This document shows, piece after piece, positions 2,132 to 58,101 of a DNA stretch of 64,000 nt. The notes beneath the pieces were generated by a model. It did not search any database, was not told the origin of the DNA, and was given only the letters and a program-made list of their open reading frames with translations. The stretch spans positions 1,020,172-1,084,171 of the forward strand of contig ML992511.1 of the NCBI GenBank assembly GCA_010093995.1, read 5' to 3'. A program made the translations under genes and the position numbers. The DNA comes from Elsinoe ampelina (taxonomy: Eukaryota). Position 1 is the stretch's first letter. Each line of letters begins with the position of its first letter.

Positions 2132-2466
2132 AGGAAGGGGACTTGTAAAGGAAGCGGGACGTGAACGGAGCAAGGATATCTTTTTTTTGGCTCCATCTCA
2201 CACCAAGGGTCGCGACCAATCGCCTTTAAGTAGCAATCCTTATTACTATAGTAATAAAGACTTCTACAATTGTTACCAATACTGCTCTAAATAGCCTAAT
2301 AAGGCGACTTGGTGACTTATTCGATGAGTCTTTTTCACTTTAAGGAGTGCTAAAGAAACACGACGTTGCGGAGGTGTGAAACCGAGCCTAAAAATGGCTG
2401 CAATGTTCCCTCTCGACCATCTTCCCCTCGACCATCTTCCCTCGGATACAATCCCCTCGAGCATCC

Positions 2467-4964
2467 TCAAAACAAATCCCTCATAATCCTACTCAACTCA
2501 TCCTCCCCCCCAAACCCCTCCATCTCCCCCAACTGTCCCGCTCCCGGCGTCTGCCCAAACCCATTCTGACCCCCTACACCTCCTGCGGCAAACCCATTCA
2601 ACGCCCCCGCCGCCTCGAACAAACTCGTCAGATCATTCGCCATATCCCCCGGGCTCGCCGTCGGGAGACTACCCGCCTGCCACCCCGCTGGTGTCTGAGG
2701 GAAGACGTCGAAAGGGTCCATGTTTGCGCTGGAACCTCGGTTGCCCTGGGCTGCGAGGTCCGCCATTGCCAGGGCAGCGGAGCGGGAGGGGTCGTCGTCG
2801 TTGCCGTTCCCATTGGGGGTGGGCATAGGGTAGGAGGAGCGGGAATTGTGATGCCTGCCGCCTGAACCGTTGTTGTTCGTGGAGATGACCAGGCCAAGTT
2901 TTGGGCCAACTTCCTTGAGGTGCCGAATCGTGCGCCAGAGCCGCTGGCTGACGTAGCTGCCTTTGGAGAAGCCGCGGACGAGGTCGAGGGCGAGGGAGAA
3001 TTCGTCGCGGACTTGGTCGGCGAAGGTGGCCGGGGCGTGGGAGACGGCCAGGAAGAGGACGGCGAGGGCGGAGGTGAGGAAGGCGTTGAAGAGGACTTGG
3101 CTGGTTTGGTACATTTGGCTGCTTGAGTTGAGTTTGCTGAGGATCTTGATGGTGTCTTGGGCGACGTTGACGACTTCTTGTGCCTGTGAGGTATTCTTCA
3201 TGATGCTTGTGGCGGAGTAGAGGACAGGTCGGTATATATTGATTAGCATGCTGTTCTGGCGCATGTAGAGAATGATGCGGAGGCGAAGATTGCTGGGGTT
3301 CAATAGAGCTGGTGAGTTGAGCTGGTCGAGGTCTGAGTGCTCAAAGCGGAGTGACGGTGGTAATGATCGTTGCCACTGTCGGACTTGATATGATAGATAG
3401 CCCACATCGGACCGAGTCATTGTGCTCTCGTTATGGTTGGTGCCAATTGCACTCCAGACTTTTGAGCCCAGAGTGTTGTAGTCGATCATCGCTGAAAGGT
3501 ACAAAGACTTGTCGCCCTATACTGACTCAGTGAATACTCGAGTCACGCTTTCAGTATACGTACCGGTCGTGGCAACTCCGGATCAATATCCGCATCCTGC
3601 AAAGCAAACGGCAAGCCCGTGCCAAACGACCACCTCCTGTCAAGACTGTGTATAGACCAAAACAGCAAGATCGCCGAATCCCTATCCTCCGAGGACATAT
3701 TCTGATAAGTTTCCTTCCTATGCAACCCCAACTCAATACACAACCTCGCCGTCAACCCAATCACCCTCCACGAAGTCGACTCCGAATCGCAATGGAAATG
3801 AAACATAGCCTGTCCCCTCATCAGCACGTTCTCCCCGCATCATCCACTCATACTCACCGCCAAAGCCAACAACCTCACCTCCTTCAACCCCGCATTCCCC
3901 AACAACAACGCATCAATCTGCGGCTGGACACAATCAAACAACCTCTGACCCAACTCACTCTTTCCCTGCCCCTCTACAATCAACGCCGTCGCCAGCACCA
4001 ACTTGAGCAAATTCGTGTCCTCATCGTAAATCGCGTCCGCCCCGGGTAGGTCCAAGCGCATCATACTCGCGCGAAGGAACGCATCGATGAATTTATACAA
4101 CGTGTTCGTGTGAGACCGCAGATGCGCGAGCGACACGACGGGGTACATCTCGTGCATTTCCTCCTCGTAGACACTCAACAGACGGAGCGCTTCCTCGCGG
4201 GACACGGACCAGATCGGGTCTTTGGCTTGGGGGCGCGCGGTGGAGACTAATTGAGGGATGGGGAGGCCGGAGGGGTCGAGGCGTGGGGAGGCTACGGGGG
4301 TGACATTCTCGGTGCGGTCGCCTTCGGGGCCGGACTCGGATGCGATGCCCATGTTGTGGAGACTGCTCTTTGCTACGTCGAAGCTGAATGCGCTGCTGGT
4401 TGGGCCGCGGAAGGTGGGAGGGCGGGGGCCGGTTTGAGATTTGGTGCGGTTGTGGGTCGGGGAGAGCATGGGTGCTGGGGAGGGGATGCCTTGGTTGTTC
4501 ATGTAGTTGGGTTGCAGGGAGGGGTCGAGGGGTGGGTTGCTCGAGGCGAGGTCGTTGCGGAGGCTTGAGAGGTTGGCGAAGAGGGCGTCGACTTGTTCCT
4601 GGAGAGAGGATATGTGCGCGTTCATTTGTCTGAACTCGCTGGGGACTGTCAGTGACATATTGTGAACAGGATTGAGTTGCAGTACTCGGTGTCTTTGAAG
4701 TTTGTCCCGCAGCAATTTGGCGCATACACGCATTCGAGGTTGAGGTTGCCGCAGCGCTGGCATGGCGAATTGCCATTACACTTGATCTTGCGTCGCTTGC
4801 ATTCATTGCTATACCTGTTAGCTTTCCAGCCTCTTCCCGCCTGATCGTCCTGCCCACCAAGCTATCGAGATGTAGCGATTGCGCTTTGCGCGAGGTTGGC
4901 CATTGCCGTCGTCTGCTTTCCGTTTCGACCCATTCGTATCAGTCGGACTGAGTGCCGGATCCAT
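2467..4964 (-). CDS. Zn(II)2Cys6 transcription factor with fungal-specific TF domain (multi-exon)
   Basis: ATG at 4964 gives MDPALSPTD...RYISIAC, spliced to NECKRRKIKCNGNSPCQRCGNLNLEC. Downstream exons carry the ELGLHR...FWSIHSLDRRWSFGTGLP motif of the Fungal_trans domain. Stop at 2467. Confidence 0.9.
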
Positions 4965-10132: not shown

Positions 10133-11638
10133 TCAATTATGAAGACTGATCCTCCCTGCGATTAACCCTGGCAGCACTCCGAGCACTTCCGCAAATGCCA
10201 GCTTGCGTATTTCCCCGACCTCTCTCTTCCTTCTTCGTGACTTGACTTCTTCTACATCGATCTCTTGAACTCTTCCGTGCGGACCGAAGACACAAGTCTT
10301 GTCCGCATTCCATGGCTGTCTGCCGTGGATCCACTCGAGGTATCTCCGTCGTTGCTCCTTTGCCAGAGCTTGCCCCGCTGGGTTCACTGAAATGTCGAAA
10401 CCCTCAAACAAGTATAACAGATCCACCGCGTGGTGAGCTCTTGCTGATGCTTGCCACGGATTCGCTTGATCAAACAGATAGACATATGCAGTCTTCCCTT
10501 GTTGCTTGAACAAGTTCGCCAGATTCCAGGTAGGCATTGCCCAAAGCACATCATTGATCAAATCCAAAGCTCCGTGTCTCGCGCTGCTTGCCCGATCCTT
10601 GTTGATGTGATATAGCTTCTTCAACTTCTCTCCCGTCACCCCAGATTTCGTGAAAGACGCATCAATCTCCTCCCCAGACAACCCATCCACCCCATTTTTC
10701 CACAACACACTCTCATACTCACAATCCCCCACCACCAACTCCTCCACCCTACCCGTCTTCGTCTGCCAATCCTTCAACCCCTCCTCCACCTGCAAAAACA
10801 CACTCACCACCCCCGCCCCCCTCTGCGCCCTAACCAAATCCTCCACCGTCGCCTTCTCCAGATCCCCATCCCCTCCAAACCCCTTCAACTTCTCCCTCAC
10901 CGGCCCCCTCACCCCCGCCTCTCCCACCGCGTCCGGCCTGGGCCCACTCATCCACAAACTCCCACTCATCAACGCCACCCTCCTCACCTCCGCCCCCATG
11001 ACGACCATCGCATGCGCCAACGCCGCCCCGGCCGACTCTCCAGCAAGGGTAATCTGCTCCGCATCCCCTCCAAACCCCCCTATATACCGCCTCGTCCACT
11101 CCAACGCAACCATCAAATCCCGCAGTCCAAGATTCTTCCTCGTCTCCGAATCCCCAACATGGAAAATGCCAAGACGGTACTGCACCGAAACCACCACCAC
11201 CGGCGTCCCGTCCGCGACGCTCTGGCTCACGAACGTCCTCACGTCGCCGATCTTGCTCCCCGCGTTGCCGTAGGAGACGACTTGGCTGCCGCCGTGGACC
11301 CAGAAGAAGACGGGGAGCTTGGCGTCCTTTTGGGTATCTGAGAGGTCGGGAACAGCGATATCCAGGTTCGTGCAGGCGAATTCGTCTTCCGTGGTGGAGA
11401 ACCAGATGTCCCCTTCTGGTTCGCGGAGGAGGTAGCCTACGTCGACGGGGATCTGGGGGCACCGTGGGCCGAAGGTGGTGGCGTTGATTGTGGAGCCATA
11501 GGTGGTGAGAACAGAGGGGTTGGCGAAGCGGTGCGGGATGGTGGCGTAGGGGATGCCGCGGTAGTGGGTGTAAGGGGCTGAAGGGGGGCGGTGGCCTTGG
11601 AAGGTGGTGTCGAGGGTGGGGTGGTGGAGGGATGACAT
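10133..11638 (-). CDS. Type-B carboxylesterase (alpha/beta hydrolase)
   Basis: YRGIPYA, EDEFAC, WVHGG, nucleophile motif GESAG and HAVDL His motif. ATG at 11638. Confidence 0.92.
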   Translation of the reverse strand: MSSLHHPTLDTTFQGHRPPSAPYTHYRGIPYATIPHRFANPSVLTTYGSTINATTFGPRCPQIPVDVGYLLREPEGDIWFSTTEDEFACTNLDIAVPDLSDTQKDAKLPVFFWVHGGSQVVSYGNAGSKIGDVRTFVSQSVADGTPVVVVSVQYRLGIFHVGDSETRKNLGLRDLMVALEWTRRYIGGFGGDAEQITLAGESAGAALAHAMVVMGAEVRRVALMSGSLWMSGPRPDAVGEAGVRGPVREKLKGFGGDGDLEKATVEDLVRAQRGAGVVSVFLQVEEGLKDWQTKTGRVEELVVGDCEYESVLWKNGVDGLSGEEIDASFTKSGVTGEKLKKLYHINKDRASSARHGALDLINDVLWAMPTWNLANLFKQQGKTAYVYLFDQANPWQASARAHHAVDLLYLFEGFDISVNPAGQALAKEQRRRYLEWIHGRQPWNADKTCVFGPHGRVQEIDVEEVKSRRRKREVGEIRKLAFAEVLGVLPGLIAGRISLHN

Positions 11639-12169
11639 TTTGTTGAGGGTGAGGAGGTGGAAAGAGGAGAGAGTAGGAATCGAGGGTGACTTACTGTTGA
11701 AGATCGAGCTGGATCTTGGTGGTTGACGGCAGTTGGGTGGAGGGGAGGAGGATGTGGGGTTAGTTGGGGAAGCTCCAAGATCTTTCATGTCATTTCTAAT
11801 TTGCAGGTATACCTACTGCACAATCAACGTCCTGTAGCACGGTGTGAAGTATTTGCATGAAGCATAAGCTCGTTGTACATGTCGTGCCGAGTTGTGACAG
11901 TCAAATAGATGTCAGCTATTCCTCGTCATGCTGGGCTTCTCCAAATTCCGATCGCGGAACTCGTGGGGTCAAAAAAAAAATAGCAGGTGGGGTTACAGGG
12001 CTTTTCAGTTCAAACGAGCCACCCCCAGGCTTGGCGCACGCTTTACCGACTTCTAAGCTACAAATTTTAGTAGCTAGAGGTCTAGATAGTATATAGGTAC
12101 AAATTCGTTATTGTTAACTAAAATTAAAGCTAAAATAAGGTGTAATAAAGGTAGTATACCTTTATATAA

Positions 12170-17473: not shown

Positions 17474-18371
17474 ATTAGCCCTACGCGCCTCTTACGCGCA
17501 TCAATTGAGCGACTAAAAACCTGTCTATGAGACATGTCAGCTTGCTGCCTTAACATGATATTTAAGCGCGGGAAAAGAGCAAGTCGAATGAAGTATAAAG
17601 CAGGCTCTTACTGAAGACTAAGACACCGTATTCATTTTGAATACAGTCCTAATGCTCGAATTCTGTTTTCTTGCCTCAACACTAGAGCTTAGAAGCAGAT
17701 ACGTGAAAAACGATTAATCTCTTAGTGCTGTTGCTGAATTCACCTAGTTAGAGATATAATTATCTAGATAGCTAGAAAGAGACGTGCTTGATTACTAACG
17801 AATCGGTAAATCTGCGGGGTATTCGCGAAATTGAGAAGCAACCTCAAAAAGAGTATAAAATTAGAAGAGAGTCCGAACATCGAGGATTTTTCAATATGAA
17901 GAACCTCTTTCCTATCGCATAACCATCTGAAATGGTAATAAGATGCCGATGACGCAGATTTGTAGTGTTTGCTAGTCCTTTGTTAAGCAAATCTTGCAGG
18001 TCGCATAGCTTCGTCAAGAAGCATCTAAACCGTATCTCATTCGATGCCAACAAGTGATAAACTCTAGATCTATAGACCTTGCATTTCAGGACCCCAATAT
18101 TGATTCAAAGCAAGCAGCAGTCTATAGCTATTCCATGAGTGTCATGTCATTGCGTATCAGATGCATATGTTCCCATTGTGAGCTGCTAGCATCTTTCGTA
18201 TCAAGCAATTCGCGTCATCAACCCACGAGCATTTGTTAAACGCACCCCCACAGCTTTAACCGCACCATCGGAGGTTTCTCCCCCGACCCCGACCAATTTT
18301 TTTCCTCACCTCCATCTCTCTGCTCACCAAGCTGCCACCCTAACCACTCCCAACACCTCCACCACTCCACC

Positions 18372-19433
18372 ATGGCACAACCAGACCTCTCCCTCCCCGA
18401 GGGCCCCCTCCTCCGCGCCCTCGCCTCCTCGTCCCTCTCCCGCCGCCGCGCAGCAATGGCCAGCCTCTCCACCTTCCTCTCCAAAAAACAAAACTTCACG
18501 CAACTCGACTTCCTCAAACTCTGGAAAGGACTCTTCTACTGCCTCTACATGACCCCGAAAATGCTCCACCAGCAACGCCTCTCGATCGAAATCTCGGAAC
18601 TCACGTACGCTCTGCAAGAAACTCCGACAAGCCAGGGGGAAGAAGTGGTGGATGAGTCGGCGACGCAGAAGAAGCGCAAGCGCGGCGGGGCGCAGAGCGA
18701 TGCGGCTTCCAAGCGACGGCGGACGTCATCATCTGCTGCTGCTGCTCCGCCTGAAGAAAAGGATGGGGGGCAAGCGGAACCCAAGTTCCTCTCCTTCGTC
18801 CGCGCCTTTTGGACCACGATTGCGAGGGAGTGGGAGGGCATCGACAAGGCGCGGCTGGATAAATTCCTCTTCCTCGTGCGCCGGATGGTGTTTGTTGGGT
18901 TTGAAGGGTGTAAGGTCTCTTCTGGCTCGATCCAAGATCCTGAAGTGGCACAGGATGGGGACGAAGCGGGGGAGCAAGAAGGGGAAGATGACGGGGGAGA
19001 GGAGTACGAGTGGTCCCCTGCCCTGTTGAGTTCTTATCTGGAGATCTTGAAGCAAGGGCCTTTGGATGCAGGGAATATGAAACTCCCGATTGGGCTGCAA
19101 TTACATGTCCTCGATGTATTGGTGGACGAGATGGAAAGAGCGGATCCTGAGCGGAAGCTGGACACACAAGAGGTCGTAGGGATATTGGAGGGGTTGAAGA
19201 GAGAGAGTAAGACCAAGACGGTCAGGAAAAGGGCTGGGGAGGTGCTGCAGGAAGGGGGGTTGGGGGACTGGGCTACTGCTGAGGGAGGGACGGGCGGCGA
19301 TGTGGATGGGAATGGGATAGAAGGAGATGGAGTGGATGAGGGATCAGGGATCGGAGAGGTGGAGCAAGACGAGGAAGAAAAGGAGAACGAGGAGGAAGAC
19401 GGGGAAGATGGGTTCGAGGGCTTCGACGACTGA
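18372..19433 (+). CDS. RRP1: Nucleolar rRNA-processing protein Rrp1/Nop52
   Basis: LKLWKGLFYCLYM and REWEGIDKARLDKFLFLVRR Nop52 motifs, acidic tail. Confidence 0.88.
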   Translation: MAQPDLSLPEGPLLRALASSSLSRRRAAMASLSTFLSKKQNFTQLDFLKLWKGLFYCLYMTPKMLHQQRLSIEISELTYALQETPTSQGEEVVDESATQKKRKRGGAQSDAASKRRRTSSSAAAAPPEEKDGGQAEPKFLSFVRAFWTTIAREWEGIDKARLDKFLFLVRRMVFVGFEGCKVSSGSIQDPEVAQDGDEAGEQEGEDDGGEEYEWSPALLSSYLEILKQGPLDAGNMKLPIGLQLHVLDVLVDEMERADPERKLDTQEVVGILEGLKRESKTKTVRKRAGEVLQEGGLGDWATAEGGTGGDVDGNGIEGDGVDEGSGIGEVEQDEEEKENEEEDGEDGFEGFDD

Positions 19434-20047
19434 TCCCCCCTCCACACGCATCAGTCTCATCTGCAGAAGGAATGGCTGAGTGGGAGGATGAGGCCAAGCA
19501 CCCGAGTAGGACAGCGTTGGTAACAGATCACCTGCTGCCACTGCATGGATAGTGTCGTCAAAGATCACAGGCACGAGCAGGCCTAAAGGGACGAGCAGGC
19601 CTAAGATTGGATATCTACTTGCCTTGGGCGACTACGCCGGTCGCCCACGCTGGCTCAAGCATTCTGTGTAGCGACCGCAAAGGGGAAAGGCGTCCCTGGC
19701 CGTGGTTTGGAGTGCTCAATGTTGCCCTCCGTACCTCGTATCCCAAAGCAGGTGCCCAGCATGTCAAGTAGACTTGGACGTCTGAGGGATGCAGCGGAGA
19801 TCACGAGAATAGCCAGACACGAAGTGAACATGAATCATATTACCAAGCCCACTCAATCTTTCCTTCCTTCACACCGACTCAGCGAGAGCGGCACTGGTCC
19901 AGTAATCCTCTTTTTTATAGAACTCAATAATCCAGAGTATGCCCCCTCTGCCTCCCGAAAGAATCATGAGAGAGAAGCAGAACAAACAATGCAAATCGTG
20001 GTCGAATGTTATCCCTTTCCGATCTCAAGTCCATGCTTGCAAAACAT

Positions 20048-31500: not shown

Positions 31501-32687
31501 CCTTCCCTCCCTTTCGCCTACCTATCGCCGATACCGCCACCATCTCTCGATCACCAAACGATAAGACCAAACGTCGACGCCCTCCAAATGTCCATGTGAA
31601 GAGATGGGAAATCTCCCAACCCTCTCCGTTGCACAACGTAGACGACCGGTCGCTTGCCCGCTACATCTGCGTTTCGATTCCACCTGCCTCCACTGGCGCA
31701 CGAGCGTACTGGTTCCCAGTGCGTGGTTTCCACGTGGAGAGGTGTCTGAACGAGAGCGATGGGCTTTCTCGGGAGGGGATGCCTGCCTGACTGCCCGCCT
31801 GCGCTTCCAAACTTGCATATCGGCTTCGTGGGCTGGGATATTGATTACTATACCCACCGGGCTCGTGTCTCGTCGATGAGATTCACTGCCAGCCCCCCTC
31901 GTGCCACCGTCGATGGGAACCCTCTCGTGCAGACGCTCATTCTACCATTCGCACTTCGTCCGAGACCACACCCGACTTCCGAGCGAACTCCGCTTACTTC
32001 TTCAACGTCCCTGCCGGGACAGTGTATACGAGGTGTTCGCCTCGTCGGACCTGTTTCATATGATGGCCTGACGTCGTTGTCGCTTCGTTTCGCCTGGGGT
32101 TGAAGCATCGCGGAAAGCCCCATAAGAATACTTTACATGTGTGATTGGAACTTGGATTGTTTCACGCTTGTATTGGCAATACATGGTGAGTGTAAAGCCA
32201 AGTATAGTCTTTCTTACACGGGCTGGCGGGGTAAGTGACGCATGTTTCGTGTTCTCGGATGATTCGCGGGGTTGGTTGAGGAGGTCGTGATCGAGGTTGG
32301 TTGTCGAGAGGGGGGCCGTCGGGAGACGACTTCCGATTGGCGTACGAGGGAGGAGGTAGGCTGATTGGTGGTGGGCTTTTTGTACAGGTGAGTCTAAGGT
32401 GAGGCTGTCCTTGGGATCGGATTGAATTTTCTGCATCAGAGCCTACTCTGCCAACTCATCTCGAAGACGTGCTTGAGATGTCAGCGTCAGCTTCTGCAGA
32501 GGATGGCTCATGCTTCCTTGATTCGACCTGCCGGACTATTCACCGTGGGAGCAAAGGATCTATGCTGGACAGAGTGCTCAGCAACGGAATTACTCGTGGA
32601 GATGGTTGCTTTCATTGAGCACCTCTCTTTCTGCTATACATTTCCAATCTATAGGGTATCATATAATCATATCTCATCCCTTCCGTC

Positions 32688-33863
32688 CTACCGATTTATC
32701 CCCGCCATCTGGACATACTTTGCAAAACTCGCATCCTCAGCACTGACCCCACTCTTGTCCTTCAACGCCTGCTCATACCTCGCCTTCAACCCCGTCTCGC
32801 CTCTATCCTCACTCCCCCCCTCTCCCTCCCCATCATCATCATCACTTTCATCCTCCGCCTCACTCACCGTCTCCGCCTCCTCCTTCCCCTGCCCCTGCCC
32901 AGCCCTTCTCTCCTCAACACCCATATCCCGCATCAACTTCTCCACCTGCTTCTCCCTATTCGCCTCCTTCTCCCTCTCCCTCTCCTCCCTCCGCCTCTGC
33001 AGTTCAGGCGCGTACTCCCGCTCAAACTCGCCTCTCTTCCCCTCCACAGCAGCGAAGAACTCGTCCATGCCTTGCCCTGTCGTGCTACTCACCCCTACCA
33101 CGGAGAGGTTGTTATAAAACTCCTCCAGCACGAGACTCATGCTGTTCAGCAAACTCCCCACGTACCCGGTCCCTCCTGTGCCGTCGTCCGCTTCCTCCTC
33201 CTTGCGCAGAGCAGCTTGGAACGCCTCGAAGTCGCGCATCCACTCGATCGCTTCGTCGGGCTTCTTGACGTCTGTTTTGTTGAAGACCAGGATCATGGGC
33301 AGGCGGGTTTTGTACAGGATGCTGATCGCGTAGAGCATGTTGCTCATGAAAGTGGATGTGCTGGAGGTGGTGCGGGGGGTGTCGATCACGTAGGCGAGGA
33401 CGGTGGGGAAGGAGGACGCGAGGGCGGAGAGCAGGATCGAGCCAGAGGCGGACCAGACGAAGACTTCGATCTGCCCGGGGGTGTCGAGGAGGATGTGGGC
33501 GGGGACGGGAGGGGAGTTGGGGGGTTGTTGTGAGGGGAGGCAGCGCTTTTCGAGGATGGAGAGGACTTGGTCGATCTTGGTGGCGAAGAGGTTGAGGGAG
33601 GTGAGGATGCCGCCATTGGGGCCGAGGTTGTATTGTTTCATTACTTCTTTGTAATTGACTGAGTCGCGGATGTCGATGTTGGGGGAGAAGGGGGTGGAGT
33701 GGACTGCTGGGTCAAGGTTGAGGATATAGGGCGGCTGTGAGGAGGAATGGAGGTGGGATGCCATGCGTTGCATAAATGTCGTCTTGCCTGAGCCGGCACA
33801 TCCCACTGTGATGATGGTGACTGGAGGTTTGGCGGGGTTGGTGGGGGTGGAGGAGGAGGCCAT
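32688..33863 (-). CDS. NPA3: GPN-loop GTPase 1 (Npa3/XAB1)
   Basis: P-loop [34 protein letters not shown], acidic tail. Confidence 0.95.
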
Positions 33864-34353
33864 GATGGGCCTGATTTGGTATGATGCTACTGCCAACGGA
33901 ATTCCTCAGTGAATAATGCGTCAGGTAAGCGAACTAGCAGGGTGTTGACTTGTATCGAAGACGCATCTAGATCATGATAATGTTGAAAGTGAAGCTCTAG
34001 CATGGAGAAAAGTGAAGATCTATGGCCGCGGTCGGTTGGAGATTCCGTTCGGAGATTTGCACAAGGTGTTGTCTACTCTGCTAGAAGTACTGAAAGGGCT
34101 GATCCACGTTTCTGATCTGACATTCACTGCATGTGATAGCGTGAGATAATCTAGAGGCCTCATCGTTGTTTTTTGCTTTCCGTTCCAGGGAGTTGGTAGG
34201 ACTATCTTAAGGGATGCTCAGTAATGCTCAATGACCAGAGTGAAGGAGACTCGGCACAGCTTGCCTCAAAATTGCCATGACATATTTTCTGAGCTTCACT
34301 CTGAATCCCACCGCAGCTTCCAAACATTTGACAAACATTGACGCGTCGCTGCT

Positions 34354-36459
34354 ATGGGTCTGGAAGATTTTGAGCGCGAGCTGGCTGCTGAGAAAGAAAG
34401 TCGACCAAAGTCTGGCAGTAGCAAGCCCAGAGACGACGAGCGGCGGCACAAGCATCGGCACCACCACAAGTCACGACATGATGATCAAGGCAGCCATAGA
34501 CGAAAGCGCTCGAGGGACAGGAGCCACCGCGATCGTGAGCGGGACGATAAGCATCGATCTAAAAGACTGAAAAGCGCATCACCTCAGCCAACCCGGAATG
34601 CTGGCGACGAGGAGGAAGACGAATGGGTGGAGAAAGAAGCCATGGCAGCCCCACCTACTGAGGATATCCTGGATGGACGTGGTGATGATAGCAGTGAGCC
34701 ACAGCAAAGAGACTCGTGGATGCAAGCTCCCTCGACTCTGGACGTGGACTACCTTCAGCGATCTGGAAGGCACAAATCGCCGCCCTCCCAGTTCGTCACA
34801 GCCAAGGAAAGTCATGGAAAGAAGATTCATGCACATGAGATGGAGCAGCTCATGAGAGACTTGGAGGACGACGAGGAAGAGGACCCCAACTTCAAAGATG
34901 AGCCGGCGCAACATGAGGTCTTGTACACCTTTGGTGATTCTGGCTCTCAATGGCGCATGACCAAATTGAAAGCGGTATATCGGCAAGCCAAAGATGAAGG
35001 ACGGCCGGTAGACGAAGTTGCACTGGACCGTTATGGGGATTTGCGGGACTTTGATGACGCCCGGGAAGAGGAACGCGAGTTGAGCAGACGGGATACATAT
35101 GGAAAGGACTATGTCGGTCTCGAGAAGCCTAGTGGAGAATTCTTCCAGGAACGCAAGCTCGCCGCTGGGATCCGCGAGCAACATGACAAGGCGCCACAGA
35201 ACGATCGAGCTCTGCCAGAGCAGGGTAAAGAGCTGTCGACGGAGCCGCAGCCGCCACCTGGTAGTAAAATTCAACTAGATCAGACAGCGCTCAACAAGCT
35301 CAAGGCGAAGATGATGAAAGCAAAGCTGCGTAAAGATCCTTCTGCCGCAGACCTTGAAGCAGAATACAACGCCGCCGTAGCTGCCTCAGCCAACGGCGCT
35401 CAATCGGACACCGTCGTTCTGTCCAACATGGACAATCGCCTTCTCGCTGGCGGACGAGGCACCGAAGTCTCAGCCGTCACCAACAAACGCGGTCTGGAAC
35501 GAGGCACCGTCACTGAAAACTCCGAAATGTCCATCGCCGACATGGTTCGCCACGAACGACGAACCCGCAACACCTCATACGCCAACGAAGGTCTCCTCCT
35601 CGCCAATCGCATCGCCAAGGACACCAAATTCACCAACGACCTCGAGTACATGAACGACAACGCCGAAAAGCTCGCCACGCGGGACATCAAATCCGACACA
35701 GCCCTCCGCTCGACCGCCGTCTCAAACTACCAGCACACGCAACGCATCCTCGACACCTGCCCACTCTGCCACCACGAAGACCGCAACGAACCCCCCACCG
35801 CCCCGCTCATCTCCCTCGGCACAAGGACCTACCTCACCCTCGCCACCGAACCCGAACTCGTGCGCCACGGCACCGTCATCGTCCCCGTGCAACACCGCTC
35901 CAACCTCCTCGAATGCGACGACGACGAGTGGGAAGAAATCCGCAACTTCCAAAAGTCCCTGACGCGTTTGTACGCCAGCCAAGACCGCGGCGTCATCTTC
36001 TACGAAAACGCCGCCTCCTCGCGGGACGGACGGCGCCACGCCGCGCTCAACGCCGTGCCCTTGCCGCACCACCTCGTCGACGCCGCGCCGGGGTTTTTCA
36101 AAGAGGCTATCCTCGCGAGCGACGAGGAGTGGTCCCAGCACCGGAAAATCGTGGACACGGCGCAGGGGGCGAGGGAGCGGTACGGCAAGGCGGCGTTCAG
36201 GAAGATGATGGTCAAGGAGATGCCGTATTTCCATGTCTGGTTCGGGATGGATGGTGGGGCGGGACATGTGGTTGAGGACGAGAGGCGGTGGCCCAAGGGG
36301 GATTTGTTCGCGAGGGAGGTCCTGGGGGGGATGTTGGATCGGGGGGTGGAGACGGTGAAGAGGCAGGGGAGGTGGGTGAGGAGGGATCATAGGGTGGAGG
36401 GGTTTAGGAAGAAGTGGGATGCTTATGATTGGACCAAGGTTTTGTTGAACGGGCAGTAG
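34354..36459 (+). CDS. cwf19: Spliceosome-associated Cwf19 (CwfJ C-terminal domains; CWF19L2-like)
   Basis: GSQWRMTKLK, CPLC, FKEAILASDEEWSQH and MPYFHVWF motifs; 701-aa ORF. Confidence 0.92.
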   Translation: MGLEDFERELAAEKESRPKSGSSKPRDDERRHKHRHHHKSRHDDQGSHRRKRSRDRSHRDRERDDKHRSKRLKSASPQPTRNAGDEEEDEWVEKEAMAAPPTEDILDGRGDDSSEPQQRDSWMQAPSTLDVDYLQRSGRHKSPPSQFVTAKESHGKKIHAHEMEQLMRDLEDDEEEDPNFKDEPAQHEVLYTFGDSGSQWRMTKLKAVYRQAKDEGRPVDEVALDRYGDLRDFDDAREEERELSRRDTYGKDYVGLEKPSGEFFQERKLAAGIREQHDKAPQNDRALPEQGKELSTEPQPPPGSKIQLDQTALNKLKAKMMKAKLRKDPSAADLEAEYNAAVAASANGAQSDTVVLSNMDNRLLAGGRGTEVSAVTNKRGLERGTVTENSEMSIADMVRHERRTRNTSYANEGLLLANRIAKDTKFTNDLEYMNDNAEKLATRDIKSDTALRSTAVSNYQHTQRILDTCPLCHHEDRNEPPTAPLISLGTRTYLTLATEPELVRHGTVIVPVQHRSNLLECDDDEWEEIRNFQKSLTRLYASQDRGVIFYENAASSRDGRRHAALNAVPLPHHLVDAAPGFFKEAILASDEEWSQHRKIVDTAQGARERYGKAAFRKMMVKEMPYFHVWFGMDGGAGHVVEDERRWPKGDLFAREVLGGMLDRGVETVKRQGRWVRRDHRVEGFRKKWDAYDWTKVLLNGQ

Positions 36460-36586
36460 AGGGAAAGGGGAATGTGAGGATGTCATGATTGAGGGTGTCT
36501 ATGGTCAAGTTGAAGCCTTGCTATGCGGTATCGCTTTTGCCCCTTCCCTGCCTGAAAACGCCGTGGTGCTTGTGAATGTGTTCTGC

Positions 36587-37745
36587 TCAGACCTCTGCTT
36601 CGCCAGGTAGCAGGTTTGAGCGGACGGCGAACATCTTTGAGGATACGGCGGCTGTGAAACCGTCTACTTGTCGCGAGTACTGCTCTACTTGTCTGCTGTT
36701 GAGGAGCGTCTCGAGTCTGCTGGGTTCTTGTGGGAGCTTGAAAAGTCTCTGCCATTCGTCTTCTGGGAGGGGTGGTTGTTTTGTGATGACGCGCTGTGCG
36801 TTTTCGGCTTTTCGCTTCGATTGCCAGGCAGTGATTTTGGCTTGCTCTCGTGCAAGTGAACGTTGGTAGAATTGGTAGTTGTTGAGTTCAGTGTGATGGT
36901 TCTCGATGCTGTCGAGGAGGAGGTCGCAGGTCTTCTCGAGGAAGGGGTCTATTGAGAGATCGAGAGAGTCGAAGTTGGGGATGAGTGGGTTCGAGTTGAG
37001 GTTAGGATCTTGGTCGAGAGATGCGAGGCTGGGAGGGAAGCCGAGCTCCTTGTCGACTGGAGCAGCGGGGAGTTGGTGCAGGAAGGATGTGAGGATGTGT
37101 GAGTTGTGGATGCTGACGGGTAGCTCGGTCAAGATGTCTGTGGGTCGGAGGTTGCTCTTTTGAAGGCTGTAAGATGTGATCAGTATAGGAAGCATTTCAA
37201 CATTGCCATACATTGGCCTACCTCTCAGTCGTGAATTTGCCCTCCTTGTATGAGGCCATAAAGGAAGGTGATAGTCGATATGCCCTGATGCTGAGCGATC
37301 CCTGCGAGCTCCTGCTGACGTCGTGTACCAGCATGACTGTCCGCTCATTCATCTCTTTCTGGTAGAAGAACTGGTTTTCGATCGTGTTGAGGTTGATAAA
37401 GTTGCCCATGCTCGTGCTCATGTACCATCCCACACTTTGTGCGTCTACGTTGACCTCCTTCAAACATCTCAGCATCTCGTTTGAGTATGCGACATTCGCC
37501 TTTGCGCGGGGCGCAGCAGCTGCCAGATTCGATCCATCGTGAGAGTCTGAATTCGTGTCGCCGACCACCGGGAAGTTGAAAGAGTTTGTGATTTGCAGTG
37601 TGCCCTCTACATCCATTCCGGTGAGAGCGCCAGTCGCAACACTTGGAAAGACCTGACTGCCATGCTTGATGATGCGCATGACCACCAGAGCTTCGACCTG
37701 AACGGTGCGGAGAGGCACATCCTTATTGATGGGGGCGTCAGCCAT
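36587..37745 (-). CDS. eIF3h: Translation initiation factor eIF3 subunit h (MPN domain)
   Basis: [43 protein letters not shown]. Intron 37221-37167. Confidence 0.93.
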
Positions 37746-40452: not shown

Positions 40453-41622
40453 ATGGCATTGCATCGTGGTATCCAGTCGGCCGTCTTCTACTACCTCAGT
40501 TGTGCTCCATGCACAGAGGCCAGGACGAGACGGAAGAGGAGGCAAGAGGCGGATATACTACGTCAAGAGAAGGACGCACTTGCTGCACAGGACCAAGCCA
40601 ATGGACTCAGTCAATATGTACATCCTCTCCCTTCGACTACGAACCCGGCATGGGATCTTGAGATCACAATTGGACCAAGTAAGGAGAGCAAGGCTGCTGC
40701 GCGGCAATGTAAGTCACGGCAGAAGGAGGCACCACCTCGGTCGAGCGGTAGTACCAGCAAATCTGATCGAAAGGACTTGAAAGGACGAAGTACACCAGAT
40801 CTGTCAGTCGACGAGCGAGTACAATGGGCAGAGTCTTTTCAGCGCAACTACCGACTGAAACGTCCTACAAAAGCAAGCACCTTCCCGCAAGATCGGCCTC
40901 GCTCGAATCTCTCACCTTTGTCAGAATCGCGGGATGAACTGAACGAGAAGCCCGCGACCCCAACATCACCCCAGCATAGCTCTTCACATACTGCCTCGAC
41001 ATCTGCTTCAGCGTCGGTCAACCTGCAGCGTCCTGCACCAACGAGACTCGCAACGACATCTCTATCCAGTCCGGCTTGGCCCTACCAACCACATCCACCT
41101 ATCAATGACTTCCATCCCGCCACCGTCACCAAGTACGACTCCGCTGTGGACGTCGCTTGGATGCTCGCACCGCCACCCTCGGCAAAGGTGATGCGCGGTC
41201 ACAAGCCCGAACGTCCCCACCACTTATCGCCTCGCAAACCTACACCTGCCATGGCTCGTCAATCCCGTCCTCTGGAGCGATTGCCCTCGATCGAAGCAGA
41301 AGTCATTCGTAGCGCCGATATTTCCCCGTCCGACATGCGTGGCCTAGGCATCGGCTTCGAAAGCGAAGCTACGGAAGAAGTCGAAAGCATCACCGGCATC
41401 GATGAGCGAGCGATGGAGAAGCGCGACTCTGCAGGCCCCCAACCAGGCCGGGATGAAGGTGGAAAGTTCCTCTTCCCACCGAGAGAGTGGGGCCTGGGAT
41501 TCGGTGAAGACAGGAGAGATTCGGGTAGCGAAGAAGGCTGGCCCGACCACACTAGCGGGATGGGAGAGAAGGGGATAGAAGCGGTCGGGTATGAGAGGAG
41601 GTGGAGGTGGTCGATCTCATAA
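40453..41622 (+). CDS. Hypothetical protein (389 aa)
   Basis: Long ATG ORF with ordered blocks (FYYLSCAPC, HPLPSTTNPAW, PPINDFHPA, WMLAPPPSAKVM) within low-complexity sequence. Confidence 0.75.
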   Translation: MALHRGIQSAVFYYLSCAPCTEARTRRKRRQEADILRQEKDALAAQDQANGLSQYVHPLPSTTNPAWDLEITIGPSKESKAAARQCKSRQKEAPPRSSGSTSKSDRKDLKGRSTPDLSVDERVQWAESFQRNYRLKRPTKASTFPQDRPRSNLSPLSESRDELNEKPATPTSPQHSSSHTASTSASASVNLQRPAPTRLATTSLSSPAWPYQPHPPINDFHPATVTKYDSAVDVAWMLAPPPSAKVMRGHKPERPHHLSPRKPTPAMARQSRPLERLPSIEAEVIRSADISPSDMRGLGIGFESEATEEVESITGIDERAMEKRDSAGPQPGRDEGGKFLFPPREWGLGFGEDRRDSGSEEGWPDHTSGMGEKGIEAVGYERRWRWSIS

Positions 41623-41948
41623 GCCAATGGGCACTGTACAAACTACTATTTATGAGGAAGAGGAGGAACCTAAAAGGACTTTGCATCGCATCAGTTTCAG
41701 TCGTTTAGCAAGCGTTCGTTATCACCTTGTTGCCTTTTTGGATGGCGTCACGAATCACGTCTGGACACGAGTTACTGTACGCAGCAGATTTCTAACAGTT
41801 GTCTTGACTACCTCTACCATACCTGCTTTCTTCGCCGGTCGAAATGGCAAACATCAATCCATCTACATCTCCTGCAGACCCCCCTCCATATCCCGTTCCC
41901 AAGTCCACCCCGCCCCCTTTCACTCTCCTGCCCTCTCCACTCCTCCCC

Positions 41949-44213
41949 CTACTCCCTCCCAGCCAACTCCACCACCCTCCCCGCCGCCTCCTCAAACCCA
42001 TCAAAAGCCTCCAACTCCAACCCGGACTCCTGAATCTTCCTCTGCCCCACCTCCTCATTCGTCCCCCTCAACCTCACCACAACCGGCACACCCCTCATAT
42101 CTACCTCCTTGAACGCCAGTATAATCCCGTCGGCAATCATCCCACAATCCGTCAGCCCGCCGAAGATATTGACGAATATAACCCGGACTCTCCCGTCGGA
42201 TAAGATCAGCTCGAAACTCTTCTTCACCGTCGCGCTGGTCGCCTTGCCCCCGGTGTCGAGGAAGTTGGCGCACGAACCGTTATACGGAGGCAGGGAGAGG
42301 ACGTCCACCGTGTTCATCGCAAGTCCGGCGCCGTTGACCAGCGTCCCGATGTTGGCAGAGGGGGAGTCGGGGGACAGCGTGATGTAGACTATGCCGTGGT
42401 CTTCCGCGGCGACGGAACGGGCGTCTTCTCGCGTCTTGTCGCGGAGGGCGAAGAGGTCGGGTTGGCGGGAGGCGGATTTGAAGGCCGCGTCGTCGAGGTG
42501 GATTTTCGGGACGGAGAGGAGGGGTTTGGAGTCCGTGACGGTCAGCAGGGCGGTGACCGAGATGGCTTCGTGGCGTTTTTGGAAGGAGGCGAAGGCTGTG
42601 TAGATATTGGGGAGGAAGGGGAGGCAGGTGGTGTGCGGGGTGGGAGAGGTGGTGGATGCGCGTCCGCGGTCGTTGTACGTTTGGATCTGCGCCTCGATGT
42701 GGGCGAAGTGGTGTTTGGTTATGCCGAAGGAGAGGTCGAAGGAGACCCCGCGGTTGGCGTTGTGGATCATGGCGTTGGGGCGGTAGATGGTACGTGGTCG
42801 GCCTTGGAGGCGGTTGATAGAGACGCCGACTTCGACGGCCTTGGATGACTTTGGTAATTTGGTGTCGAATGGAATGGATGGTAAGAGAGGCTGGAGCAGA
42901 TCGCACGCTTGTGCTCCCTTGATGTGCAAATGTCGTCGCTGGGATGTTATGGGCTGGGTTCTGTTCCAAGCAGGTCGCGTGCTTGTGTGATATCCCCTAC
43001 GCTGACCCGGGAGGGTAGATGCAGATGAAGTCGGAGTGTTGGACGAATTCTGACGTAAATGTCAGACTGGTTCTGGAGGAATGGCAATGTACTTACTTGC
43101 GGCATAGATCTTCGAGCGTGGAGTATGGCTTTTAGGGTAGGACCAAACTGCTCGGGATGATCGCACATTATTACGCCAGCTCCTTCGAGAGCTTCGTACT
43201 TCATCTGGGCAGTGCCTTCAGTCGGTCCTTGAAAGGCTCCAGCATGACCATTGATGCGGTTGCCTGGAGCGGTGCGGCCAGCGACCAAAGCTACAATGGG
43301 TCTGTCAACGTCAGCAAAGAGCATAGACTGCTGTGAATACATCGCTCACTTTGGGTTCTTCGTATTAAGCCGATAGTTCTTGATCTCCTTCGCGACAGCT
43401 TCCTCGGCATTGCCACCTACCTCGCCCACGATGACAATGGCATGAGTATCCGGATCGTGTACCAAGACCTTGAAGCCATCCACTAGGGTCGTTCCAGACG
43501 CAACGTCTCCGCCTGTGCCTATGCATATACTTTGGCCGAGTCCAGCGCGAGTAAGCGATCCGACTGCCTCGTAACTGAGGGTACCAGACTTTGCCACAAC
43601 GCCGACATGTCCTGGCTTATAGATTGGTAAAGGTTGAAATCCAATTCTGCAGTACCCTAGAGGGGCTATTATACCAGGGGAATTAGCTCCTACAAAGCGG
43701 CTCTTGTTGGTGGTTCTCAGGATCTCTCCGATCTGTTGTCATATCAGTGAAGTGTACGACATCTCGCGAGCAGGCAAAGCCTACCCTCAGAATATCATGA
43801 ACAGGAATATGTTCGGCCACAGCTACAATCAGAGGGATTTCCGCTTCAATAGCCTCCTCAATCGCCATTGCCGCCCCTGTCATGGGCACAAAGATGGCGG
43901 TGGCATCTGGTTTCAGTTGCTCTTTTGCCGCTCGTACTGAAGGGCATACTGGTAGACCCAAATGCTCGCCATCTTTGCCTGGGGTGACGCCTCCGACAAC
44001 CTGCGTGCCCCATTCAAGAGATTCTTGTGCATTGCTTGTCGCCACTCTGCCAGTGAATCCCTGGTAAATGACTCGAGTGTGTCGACCTATACGAAGGTGT
44101 TGCAGTGTCTTTTCTTGTAATTTGGCTGGATCCTGGTGTACAGAGCGGGTACTGGTACTACAAGTCCCCAGTCGTCTTTTGAGGTAAGATCGAGTCACAG
44201 AACTCGTGAACAT
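41949..44213 (-). CDS. Fused succinyl-CoA-ligase-like alpha + beta subunit protein (ADP/GDP-forming acyl-CoA ligase family), 4 exons, mitochondrial
   Basis: Alpha motifs: QGFTG, VGGVTPGK, KSGTLSYEA, GEVGG, GHAGA. Beta motifs: NGAGLAMNT, NFLDTGG, NIFGGL, VRLRGTN. Three GT-AG introns join these in one frame without a stop. Confidence 0.88.
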
Positions 44214-44831
44214 GGTTGGAGATTGTTGGTCGGCGTAGGTCAGCTTCCAGCTCGTCGACTAAGATGGTATTAAGAGTTCCGATGTGCCCATCCACAGAAA
44301 TGTCCAATCCCAGATTCTCAAGTTGTGTAGTTTTGTAGATACCAATGTCTCTTGCACGGGTCAATGATTAAAACCGTTGACTATATCGTTATAGATCACG
44401 ACCGAGGAAAGTTTGCCGAGTTTTGCTCTTGCAATTCCCATCACAAACCAGCACGAACCAAGCCGAAGTCGGACGATCACCAATTGCAGTGATCTGTCAC
44501 CAAAATCAATGGTGGAAGGACATGTCGTTGGCCTTGCAGAGACACCCCCACATGAACCATGACGTTGGGTCCTCCGCCCACAGTGCGGCCAGACTTGCGG
44601 GGGAAGACAATCCACATTTTCCGGCGCGCGACCAATTGAAGATTACTTGCATACCTCGGGACCGGTGTTTGCAAACTCACAATCCTGGAGCACAAGACAT
44701 GTCATCCGGACATCATACCGGCCACAAAGTGAAAGTGGGAGAAGTCCTTTGACGAACCCGCTTCACCTCACGTCGCTCATTCCAACCTGGTCGACCGACC
44801 TGACTTATCACCACAAAGACACTCATCCCCA

Positions 44832-45479
44832 ATGGCAGACCGCCTCACCACCCCGCTCTCCTCCCTCAAACTCTCCACCGCAACCCCCGTCTCCGACTCC
44901 TGGGAAGACGACTCCCCCTCCGACCACGAAACCACATCGCCCCCCTCCCCTTCCCAAGCCAAAACCTACCCACGCGCCCCTCCCCCTACCCCAGCTACGA
45001 CCTCCCCCACCGTCCCAAGCACAGACTGGGGCGCCGCAAGCAGCAAGTACCGCACGATTGACGGGGCATTGGACGAGCGAGAAGAGGACAGCTATATGGC
45101 TTCTCGAGCGGCGAAGCCATCTGGAAGGAAAGACAGTGCGAGGGAGCGGGAGAAGGAGAAGGAGAAAGAGGACGGCGCGAGGAAGTGGCAGGAGTACTCC
45201 TCTTCGTCGGGAGGGGACCCCCGCTCTGGGCCGAGTATGCCCACGAGCAGAGCCGGGGACGGAGCAAGCGACAAAAGGCCGGAGAAGAGCACGGCTGTGG
45301 CGTCGCGGTTGATTGCGGCGGGACTAGGGGTGAAGGCGCCGAGGAGGACCGAGGAGCAGAGGGAGTATGATAAGGCGATGAGGGCGCAGGAGGCGAAGAA
45401 GAGGGAGAGGGAGAGGGAGGAGGAGAGGCGGAGGAAAGAAGAGAGTGAGAGGGCGAAGAGGGCGATTTGGGATGATTGA
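44832..45479 (+). CDS. Hypothetical protein (215 aa) with charged C-terminal coiled coil
   Basis: ATG ORF with DSWED, KRPEKSTAVASRLIAAGLGVKAPRRTEEQREYD and terminal AIWDD. Confidence 0.78.
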   Translation: MADRLTTPLSSLKLSTATPVSDSWEDDSPSDHETTSPPSPSQAKTYPRAPPPTPATTSPTVPSTDWGAASSKYRTIDGALDEREEDSYMASRAAKPSGRKDSAREREKEKEKEDGARKWQEYSSSSGGDPRSGPSMPTSRAGDGASDKRPEKSTAVASRLIAAGLGVKAPRRTEEQREYDKAMRAQEAKKREREREEERRRKEESERAKRAIWDD

Positions 45480-46043
45480 ATTGCTGGTACCGGGGAATAG
45501 GGTGTGGGATGTGGATTAAGGGCAGAGCTTGAGGGTCAGGCGCGAGGAGTCCAGCTCGATACGGTCGACGGACGGGGACCGAGAGAAGGTTGGTCATGGA
45601 AACCAGAGATCAGCCCAAGACCAGTAATGGGTGGGTCATGTGCAGGGTCGAGGCTACAGTGGTTGAGGACAATCCAGCATCTGAGGAATGTGCATCACGG
45701 GGATAATGTGTCATGTAGAAAAGCGTCGAGAGATCACTGCCGCAGAAAGGAAACCCCTTGCAAGTCATGATAATGTGGCAACTTTTGTAATTCATAAACT
45801 CAGCTATCATCTTCCCTCGTCGCATCCATTTGGAAAGACTGCAGATGAATCCTCCAGCGTGTCTCTGGTATAGCCCTGAACCAAAACGCCGTCTAGCATC
45901 GCTGTATTCATAAACAGCCGACGGCAGCAAGTAAGGGAAACGGTGGTGGAAGGGCTCGTGTGAATGATTTCGTGATGTGTGTCGTGTGAAAGATTGGGGA
46001 ATGGATTGCGGGTATGTCTCTGGGCCTGCTTCTTGTGCCTTGC

Positions 46044-49412: not shown

Positions 49413-49727
49413 AGAGAAAGTCGTTGAGGGATCAGAGGATGGAGAAGGAAACGAAGATCTAGGAAAGTCAGTAGACACAGAGGCTGAGAATCGAATTGTT
49501 CACCCGACCCTTGGCGCCCAGCAATCGTGGTGGTTTCGTATTGACCTCCTGAATGTAAGATTCCCTCCTCGCTAGCCAGTGTTTGCACAGCATTGGACTG
49601 CTGACGAGGGAATCATGCACGTCTATATCTACGGAAGATGCTCGATCGACACCCATCAAGGCTCTATCCTCCCCTCAACCTTCTCTGCACATCCACCCCG
49701 TCCCTCCCCATCACTTCTTTCCAATTC

Positions 49728-57490: not shown

Positions 57491-58101
57491 AACGATGATG
57501 ATGGAAAACAAAAGAATGGAGGTTTACTTTTTCTTGTGTTTATTCACTATAGAATTACCCTGAGGAATATCGAGGCATGGCCTAGGTCGGACACGACTTC
57601 TTTGTTGTTGGCCGGGGCGTTTTTTCCCCTGTATTGTAGATTACTTCCCGATACCATTGCATTGAAGTAACAAAAATTTATTCTCTTTGACGTATTTGCA
57701 ATCGTTTTGTGATGTTTACAAGCGGGCGCCTCTGTCCCAAACCCTCTCATCTACCGCAGTTTCCATGTCGTCAATGTCGTCGGGCATGCGTTGGGCATGC
57801 GTGGGGCGCACAGAGCGCAAAGTAAGGAACGCAGGAGCACAACGCTTTCCATGACGCCGACTATGGACATGAAAAATTTCACCTCTCGACTGATCTCTGG
57901 AAGGAGTCTTCAGTGGTAGAGTCCAGTGGACAGCGGTCAAGTCTCGGGTGTCGGGTATCGATTCATCAACTCAGCAATATACACTTTCCCCCCCTTCCCC
58001 TCCCCCCTCCATCCACGCCCTACCCAAACCAAAACATGCGATTCGCTAATCCATGACATTTTCATCTTCCCCTGCTCTCGTGCCTTGCTCCTATCCGCAG
58101 A

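Follow-up and report, generated by a model that had tools for sequence, protein, structure and literature searches.

Sharp C-rich to G-rich strand switches near gene 3' ends in a 64,000-nucleotide stretch of Elsinoe ampelina DNA

C-rich to G-rich switches in the window

The subject of this study is a switch in strand composition found in 64,000 nucleotides of DNA from Elsinoe ampelina (assembly GCA_010093995.1, contig ML992511.1, positions 1,020,172 to 1,084,171 of the forward strand); this whole stretch is called the window, and positions are counted from its first letter. On the + strand, several hundred bases rich in C give way abruptly to sequence rich in G, and the focal case is the unit at 10616..11812, in which a C arm (10616-11262) meets a G arm (11262-11812) at a centre near 11262. 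This unit occupies part of a carboxylesterase gene on the minus strand (ATG at 11638, stop codon at 10133-10135; Pfam COesterase, E=1.8e-52) together with its 5' flank. Between 10640 and 11290 the + strand holds 312 C and 86 G (GC skew -0.57) and between 11291 and 11770 it holds 68 C and 221 G (GC skew +0.53), with extremes of -0.83 and +0.72 in 200-bp windows and a G+C content of 0.60-0.68. Read in the sense direction of the carboxylesterase gene, the third-position skew runs through -0.88, -0.62, +0.29, +0.74, +1.00 (C0/G50) and +0.63, and the third-position counts per 60 codons pass from C47/G3 to C0/G50. The 5' flank (11639-11800) has a sense skew of -0.63. The left border of the unit, at 10616, falls within the coding sequence and has no G-rich side to its left.

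The switch is recurrent. A sequence-only reading of this DNA had named 12 centres, the focal one included, and a scan of the window with 400-bp arms found all 12 again with offsets of no more than 100 bp (recomputed centres 2772, 4216, 11262, 18614, 33206, 36090, 42252, 45063, 49098, 50067, 58646 and 60661), so the observation itself is confirmed. When a strong switch is defined as an absolute skew of at least 0.3 in both 400-bp arms, the window contains 11 C-to-G switches versus 3 G-to-C switches. Each of the latter (at 3482, 32483 and 49558) is the junction of two neighbouring C-to-G units, and no isolated unit of G-to-C polarity was found in the window; sharp switches of the two polarities are thus not equally common. 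Shuffling the window in 50-bp blocks gave a mean of 0.23 (maximum 2) and shuffling in 200-bp blocks a mean of 2.55 (maximum 6), versus the 11 observed.

Averaged over the 12 units, the skew peaks at -0.60 and +0.56 at 200-400 bp from the centre and is near zero (+0.05/+0.11) by 600-800 bp, with a G+C maximum of 0.61-0.63. The density is 12 strong units per ~45 kb of genic DNA, with one pair only 970 bp apart and long skew-neutral stretches separating units. Two details of the earlier description were upheld in part. The centres had been called CpG-rich, and there is an enrichment, but it is only mild (observed/expected CpG of 1.05-1.26 at centres versus 0.83-0.99 outside). The arms had been described as C/A-rich and G/T-rich, which is true at silent sites, but over all bases the A/T part is weak (AT skew within +/-0.1). 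No motif common to the 12 centres was found.

The composition of silent sites shows how far the bias goes. Fourfold-degenerate sites were taken 60-500 bp from the centres in 13 coding segments. In arms that are C-rich on the sense strand these sites are A 0.12, C 0.71, G 0.10 and T 0.07 (n=992), and in sense-G arms they are A 0.10, C 0.15, G 0.64 and T 0.12 (n=563), versus A 0.22, C 0.34, G 0.15 and T 0.30 in control coding sequence (n=1751). On the opposite strand the fourfold composition of the G arms is about that of the C arms, so the two arms are mirror images. Across units the third-position skew spans about -0.9 to +1.0. Fourfold sites carry the strongest skew, two introns inside arms match it, and 3' flanks are weaker, with a sense skew of +0.16 to +0.52 in nine of 10 unit-bearing genes (the tenth, a GPN-loop GTPase gene, has +0.09). 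One of the two introns (50555-50502, in a cytochrome P450 gene) lies inside a C arm and has 21 C and 4 G on the sense strand (skew -0.68); the other (3857-3810, in a transcription-factor-like gene) lies inside a G arm and has 23 G and 4 C (skew +0.70). The latter is 48 nt long, and such a composition is very unusual for a fungal intron; the bias there reaches sequence that is spliced out. Two unskewed introns were seen, one at an arm border and the other at a unit junction. The proposal that the skew runs through synonymous sites, introns and untranslated regions (UTRs) therefore stands.

At twofold-degenerate sites silent change is possible by transitions only. The fraction C/(C+T) at twofold pyrimidine sites is 0.90 in C arms and 0.34 in G arms, versus 0.64 in the control, and the fraction G/(A+G) at twofold purine sites is 0.27 and 0.89, versus 0.68. 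The G+C content of twofold sites is barely raised (~0.70 in arms versus 0.66 in the control). This preference for A and C in one arm and for G and T in the other indicates that the bias is a strand asymmetry and not a GC bias. Silent-site AT skew, measured at third positions, lies above zero in C arms and below it in G arms, the inverse of the GC skew. At fourfold sites a single base wins (0.64-0.71), so transversions towards G on the G-rich strand are also needed. Amino-acid use changes along with the skew: P, T, H, S, A, Q and L together make up 0.57 of residues in C arms and 0.34 in G arms, and G, V, E, R, W, M, D and K make up 0.26 and 0.56. Because amino-acid use follows a skew that is present at silent and non-coding sites, protein content is dragged along and is not the cause, as the sequence-only reading had concluded.

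Position of the units relative to genes

Gene models were built from open reading frames (ORFs), Pfam matches, translations and the intron joints of RNA-like contigs (X7). These contigs behave like RNA of the same organism, with 0-1 differences per listed piece and with intron joints, and they carry no information on strand, transcript ends or expression level. The sequence-only reading had noted that switches occur in genes of both orientations and had argued from this that transcription direction does not explain them. However, a C-to-G switch is its own reverse complement, so independence of gene orientation is automatic and uninformative. On the sense strand, each gene with a switch reads C-rich and then G-rich, whichever its orientation.

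Centres are concentrated at a particular distance from the ends of genes. Eight of the 12 lie 219-416 bp upstream of a stop codon, and the zone 200-450 bp before a stop holds these 8 of 12 centres versus 8.7% of GC-rich positions (P=1.2e-6, 18 stops). Alignment on the stop codon used the 18 genes whose stop could be placed; the LARP gene was excluded since its 3' exon could not be fixed, as were the ORFs at 1385-2197, 19605-20174, 27526-32442, 39591-40109, 51731-52132 and 61576-61965, for which there is no confident gene model. Among the 18 genes, the mean sense skew is about -0.2 between -1000 and -400 relative to the stop; over the final 200 bp of the coding sequence it is positive in 15 of them (mean +0.39), and past +200 it drops below zero. 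The switches thus largely track relative position in the transcript, and the claim that they are free-standing sites to which transcription is irrelevant is not supported. The three genes without positive terminal skew are a P-type ATPase gene, eIF3h and the gene ending at 45610. For each of the last two, the stop codon of a convergent neighbour is only ~130 bp away, and that neighbour's G arm extends across the gene.

Gene length affects how a unit is seen. Long genes (CwfJ, the ATPase, LARP and SET genes) have no C block at the 5' end. In short genes a single unit fills the gene and the C block begins in the 5' flank; upstream of a secreted-protein-like gene, for example, the skew is -0.67. 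Many of the units are at closely spaced convergent gene pairs.

The eight centres close to a stop codon are found in a variety of genes. The unit at 2216..3515 (centre ~2772) covers the last exon and 3' flank of the fungal transcription-factor-like gene on the minus strand, with the centre 305 bp upstream of the stop at 2467. The unit at 41795..42900 (centre ~42252) has the same arrangement in a CoA-ligase-family gene (minus strand, stop at 41949, 300 bp). Two adjacent units share a convergent pair: that at 48541..49611 (centre ~49098) lies on the last exon of a nucleoside hydrolase gene (plus strand, stop at 49412, 311 bp), and that at 49611..50656 (centre ~50067) on the terminal exons of the cytochrome P450 gene (minus strand, stop at 49728, 336 bp). 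The transcripts of this pair probably overlap at their 3' ends, as one RNA-like contig spans 49303-50501 and passes both stops. A membrane-protein-like gene on the minus strand (stop at 58292) carries the unit at 57962..59300 (centre ~58646, 354 bp upstream) in its 3' part and 3' flank, and the secreted-protein-like gene (minus strand, ATG at 61167, stop at 60442) carries the unit at 60000..61300 (centre ~60661, 219 bp upstream), which extends into its 3' flank.

The remaining two of these eight units straddle gene borders. The unit at 35400..37170 (centre ~36090) spans the convergent genes CwfJ and eIF3h: the 3'-most kilobase of CwfJ (plus strand, stop at 36459, centre-to-stop distance 366 bp) holds the C arm and the first part of the G arm, and the remainder of the G arm coincides with the terminal exon of eIF3h (minus strand, 36587-37166), which is consequently C-rich on its sense strand up to the stop. 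The intron that precedes this exon (37167-37221) was placed by the joint of an RNA-like contig. The unit at 44700..45700 (centre ~45063) covers the 3' part of a plus-strand ORF (44733-45479), with 416 bp from centre to stop, and the 3' end of the convergent minus-strand gene with its stop at 45610.

Four centres lie farther from a stop codon. In the focal carboxylesterase gene the distance is 1126 bp. The transcription-factor-like gene has a second unit at 3515..4650 (centre ~4216), 1750 bp upstream of its stop, which ends at the intron 3563-3517. The unit at 18171..19528 (centre ~18614) covers an entire Nop52 gene (plus strand, ORF 18240-19433) with its centre 816 bp from the stop, and the unit at 32620..33900 (centre ~33206) covers the entire GPN-loop GTPase gene (minus strand, ORF 32688-33905) with its centre 515 bp upstream of the stop and third positions that pass from C47/G7 to C0/G45. 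Additionally, a weaker unit (41000..41700, centre ~41346, D=0.56) is present in a plus-strand ORF (40420-41622), 273 bp upstream of its stop. Three of the unit-bearing genes have no Pfam match.

The position of the switch is the same in homologous genes. A single search of metagenome contigs, with the CoA-ligase-family gene's last exon as the query, gave 12 loci with 46-69% protein identity, several of which are near-duplicates, leaving ~8 that are independent. All 12 have a sense skew between -0.2 and -0.5 in the stretch from -1000 to -400, and between +0.46 and +0.70 over the final 200 bp. When codon positions were analysed in 8 loci (L005, L007, L010 and L011 were dropped as near-duplicates), all 8 had a third-position skew that goes from -0.6/-0.86 to +0.44/+1.0 and flips within 180-360 bp of the stop. 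Locus L012 shares the domain architecture and lacks an intron at the start of the block, and even so its C block starts ~950 bp before the stop. With silent sites saturated at 46-69% identity, it follows that the switch has been re-created in each lineage at the same gene position and is not a one-off footprint. The idea of a long-lived footprint therefore survives in so far as the silent and non-coding bias persists at the same gene position in these homologues, but not as a footprint of free-standing bidirectional sites.

A relative (X15), 8-12% divergent and syntenic over 32634-44327, necessarily keeps the units, since such divergence cannot erase the skew; its piece-wise divergence is 8.0% in two pieces with units versus 9.3-12.4% elsewhere. 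In the same relative, no or very little alignable sequence was seen at 44974-45640, which contains the unit centred at 45063, and at 50310-51643, though the neighbouring DNA is covered.

Several other features of the window bear on its annotation. The arms (10611-11341, 32398-33533, 58353-59176 and others) hold long spurious ORFs on both strands and in several frames, which arise from the scarcity of stop codons where G or A is depleted. Low-complexity repeats, at which contigs seem to be cut, are present at 32810-32855, 39872-39918 and 45388-45434, in or near skewed arms. The genic blocks of the window, with ~50-55% G+C and introns of ~50 nt, alternate with blocks of 25-35% G+C in which the ratio TpA/ApT is 2.0-2.3 and the ratio (CpA+TpG)/(ApC+GpT) is 0.05-0.36, the signature of repeat-induced point mutation (RIP). 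The RIP-like AT-rich blocks at 1-1150, 12000-15300 and 21400-26700, whose G+C content is 27-33%, contain no skew units. RIP was considered as a cause of the switches and rejected, as the arms are GC-rich and RIP-like indices occur only in the AT-rich blocks. Between two of these blocks lies a minus-strand gene with Pre-SET and SET domains (15882-17393) that resembles H3K9 methyltransferases of the DIM-5 kind.

Relation to known fungal strand polarity

The pattern described here is close to one already reported from fungi. McLean & Tirosh (2011), with a species set that includes many filamentous ascomycetes, found that, in nearly all the fungi they studied, the coding strand of genes favours C at the 5' end and G at the 3' end (PMC3315797). 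According to the cited passages of that report, the bias is also seen at fourfold sites, in promoters and in 3' UTRs and affects amino-acid use, AT skew is flat along genes and positively correlated with GC skew, and the cause was left between a phase-specific mutational pressure and avoidance of C (PMC3315797). The window agrees with four of these five defining features: the sense strand is C-rich and then G-rich (15 of 18 genes positive in the last 200 bp), fourfold sites are affected, the bias extends into promoters and 3' UTRs, and amino-acid use is shifted. The fifth, AT skew, differs. There are also differences of form. The published pattern, as given in those passages, consists of modest genome-wide averages, whereas sharp blocks of ~0.5 kb are seen here in single genes; the C block of long genes adjoins the G block here and is tied to the stop and not to the start; and units may cross gene borders or occur twice in a gene. 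Taken together, these data suggest, with a probability of roughly 0.85, that the switches are a gene-anchored member of the known fungal skew polarity in an extreme, block-like form.

Two further systems share part of the pattern. Fujimori et al. (2005) described an excess of C over G near where transcription starts in plants and some fungi (PMC555766), and the C-rich sense 5' ends of short genes in the window (-0.63 for the carboxylesterase gene, -0.67 for the secreted-protein-like gene) are similar. However, the start-site peak as described is confined to about +/-100 bp and leaves both the C blocks 400-1000 bp before the stop and the G block unexplained. Ginno et al. (2013) reported that human genes lying close together have terminal GC skew and R-loops at their 3' ends (PMC3787257). 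There, too, genes are dense and the non-template strand is rich in G at their 3' ends, which makes a link to termination and single-stranded DNA a candidate here. In the human genes, however, the skew is downstream of the poly(A) region and not in the coding sequence, and the cited part of the report describes no preceding C block. It should also be noted that the comparison with the window is one of sequence skew.

Candidate causes and implications

The reading proposed here places the switch within the transcription unit. The last 1-1.2 kb of most transcription units in the window carries a C(/A)-rich block on the sense strand followed by a G(/T)-rich block that continues past the stop codon and ~200 bp into the 3' flank. 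Short genes hold one such unit only and hence show a C block from the promoter onwards. A transcription-linked, strand-specific bias of mutation (damage) or repair has about an even chance of being the cause. The favoured changes on the G/T-rich strand of each arm would be C>T, A>G and N>G, a spectrum that would be expected if this strand were left single-stranded or unrepaired and suffered deamination and base loss, with a Rev1-type polymerase inserting C opposite abasic sites. In yeast, Rev1 and Pol zeta do place C opposite abasic sites, and transcription-dependent T>G changes arise from the non-transcribed strand and become still more frequent as R-loops build up (PMC6063437). Over the final ~500 nt it is the sense (non-template) strand that would be exposed, R-loops of the termination zone being one example; over the ~500 nt before that, exposure would fall on the opposite strand, for example as the non-template strand of antisense transcripts that come in from the 3' end and are assumed here. 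G-rich RNA would in turn favour R-loops, which may make the process self-reinforcing and the blocks sharp. This detail of the scheme, with its R-loops and abasic sites, is tentative and less likely than not.

A number of observations weigh against this reading. Two different phases of transcription would not obviously yield arms that mirror each other almost perfectly; a process symmetric about the centre would fit this better. The arms contain 406 G runs versus 504 in shuffled arms, and there is no sign of the G clusters that initiate R-loops. The antisense transcripts over the C arms are an assumption. Some units do not respect genes: that centred at 36090 spans two convergent genes and makes the last exon of eIF3h C-rich on the sense strand to its stop, the gene ending at 45610 is likewise C-rich to its stop, and the P-type ATPase gene has no G block. 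The transcription-factor-like gene has two tandem units (2772 and 4216), and the centres in the focal carboxylesterase and Nop52 genes lie far from the stop (1126 and 816 bp). Finally, silent-site AT skew flips inversely to GC skew in the window, which differs from the fungal pattern in the cited passages of McLean & Tirosh.

A rival explanation is selection on the transcript or on transcription, in which a C-then-G 3' kilobase aids elongation, pausing or termination (through R-loop-assisted termination or avoidance of C). Anchoring to gene 3' ends with a position conserved over deep divergence fits such selection, as does the frequency of units at closely spaced convergent pairs; terminal GC skew and R-loops mark closely arranged human genes (PMC3787257), and McLean & Tirosh discussed an adaptive hypothesis for their pattern (PMC3315797). 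However, holding ~70% of fourfold sites on one base over ~1 kb in most genes would need strong selection at each site, and selection on one transcript does not predict arms of mirror-image composition. There is no excess of G runs, G-quadruplex motifs or fold-back pairing, the G block is missing in some genes, and the dragged amino-acid composition (0.57 versus 0.34; 0.26 versus 0.56) looks like a cost and not like design. Selection of this kind is therefore considered unlikely.

Meiotic recombination offers an explanation that begins from the symmetry of the arms, and it too is unlikely. The centres would be fixed sites of recombination initiation with strand-polar correction of heteroduplex, in which a mismatch whose invading strand carries C (C.C, C.A, C.T) would go uncorrected more often than its reciprocal (G.G, G.T, G.A). 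To the left of the break, the heteroduplex would consist of the recipient top (3'-ended) strand and the donor bottom strand, so over-transmission of C alleles of the invading strand would enrich the top strand in C to the left of the break and in G to its right. Poor correction of C.C mismatches in yeast meiosis is known from classical genetics, although literature searches did not find it; nor did they find anything relevant on skew at recombination hotspots. Such a process accounts for the polarity, for the symmetry of the arms and for the equal composition of the C-rich strand in both, and it predicts the preference for A over G and for C over T on the C-rich strand that is seen at twofold sites. 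It also covers units that run across gene borders (36090, 45063), a gene that holds two of them, and AT-rich RIP-like blocks without units. Moreover, intragenic recombination hotspots are reported from another filamentous ascomycete (PMC5844332). Set against this are the fixed distance of centres from stop codons, the same switch position in 12/12 homologues of 46-69% identity, and the absence of both a motif at the centres and a net GC gain at twofold sites. We know of no hotspot determinant that sets breaks ~300 bp inside the 3' ends of coding sequences. In Zymoseptoria, GC-biased conversion is reported to be extremely weak or absent (PMC5844332). The fuller version, in which the centres are evolutionarily stable initiation sites in the 3' parts of genes and the skew comes from strand-polar biased conversion that favours the orientation of G:C pairs and not GC content, is more doubtful still. 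If it were true, strand-polar conversion would be a new kind of conversion drive, able to change amino-acid composition as well as silent sites, and the sequence itself could show where breaks occur.

Simpler forms of the recombination idea can be rejected. Hotspots with ordinary GC-biased gene conversion, one of the proposals of the sequence-only reading, are contradicted by the twofold sites, where the C arm prefers codons that end in A (G/(A+G) of 0.27 versus 0.68) and the G arm codons that end in T (C/(C+T) of 0.34 versus 0.64). Double-strand-break resection damage produces mirror-image, strand-coordinated change on both sides of a point, and the units resemble such damage in having mirror-image, strand-specific change over ~1 kb. 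However, single-strand damage of tails resected from a break at the centre would give G/T-rich sequence on the left and C/A-rich sequence on the right, and the observed polarity is the opposite at 12/12 centres.

Breaks could instead fall in nucleosome-free gene flanks (promoters and terminators), with damage to resected single-stranded 3' tails removing C from the sense strand at gene 3' ends and from the antisense strand at 5' ends, so that a C-to-G switch is the meeting point of two damage zones. The polarity of this scheme, with G/T enriched to the left of a break and C/A to its right, fits the G-to-C switches at the convergent intergenic positions 41795, 49611 and 57962 and at the promoters at 11812 and 18171, and the scheme would account for the C-rich 5' and G-rich 3' ends of short genes. 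It does not fit long genes, where the C block adjoins the G block (-1000 to -400) and is not at the 5' end, nor the left border of the focal unit, which is inside the coding sequence (10616) and lacks a G-rich side. Isolated G-to-C units are absent and 3/3 strong G-to-C switches lie between C-to-G units, so flank breaks are an improbable cause.

Across bacterial origins of replication and human skew jumps, a strand passes from C-rich to G-rich. The suggestion that the centres are bidirectional replication origins, with a skew from leading- and lagging-strand mutation, is right about polarity, which is that of bacterial origins and human initiation zones, and about the G/T against C/A character, and the pattern does recur only in gene-rich DNA. 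Origin skews, however, are small and persist over kb to Mb, out to the terminus, whereas the skew here is large, with a fourfold C:G ratio of ~7:1 far above known replicative skews, and is gone within 0.5-1 kb. With 12 strong units in ~45 kb of genic DNA, two of them 970 bp apart, and with anchoring to stop codons and conservation in homologues, origins are very improbable. Overall, free-standing bidirectional origins or hotspots, as the sequence-only reading had proposed, are not supported. Its further suggestion that the arms are kept for structure, as outward-facing G-quadruplexes or by pairing of C arm and G arm in mRNA, has only composition in its favour and is barely credible, as there is no excess over composition of G-quadruplex motifs (14 in 24 arms versus 17.9 +/- 3.7 in shuffled arms, with 179/200 shuffles reaching the observed count), of G runs, or of fold-back (400-nt centres of the 12 units had energies no lower than within-arm shuffles, z from -1.74 to +3.00, mean +0.23).

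The switches of this window are a new and very sharp member of a known fungal pattern. A polar bias that fixes ~70% of fourfold sites distorts measures of codon usage and codon optimality, ratios of nonsynonymous to synonymous change (dN/dS) and scans for GC-biased gene conversion, and gene finding based on ORFs would over-call in the arms, given the spurious long ORFs there. The switch could also act as a marker of fungal transcript 3' ends that is read from sequence only. For the cause of the 5'-C/3'-G polarity of fungal genes, reported in 2011, genomes in which it is as sharp as here are the best testing ground; the assets of this one are arms that mirror each other, introns with skew and units that extend over the borders of convergent genes.

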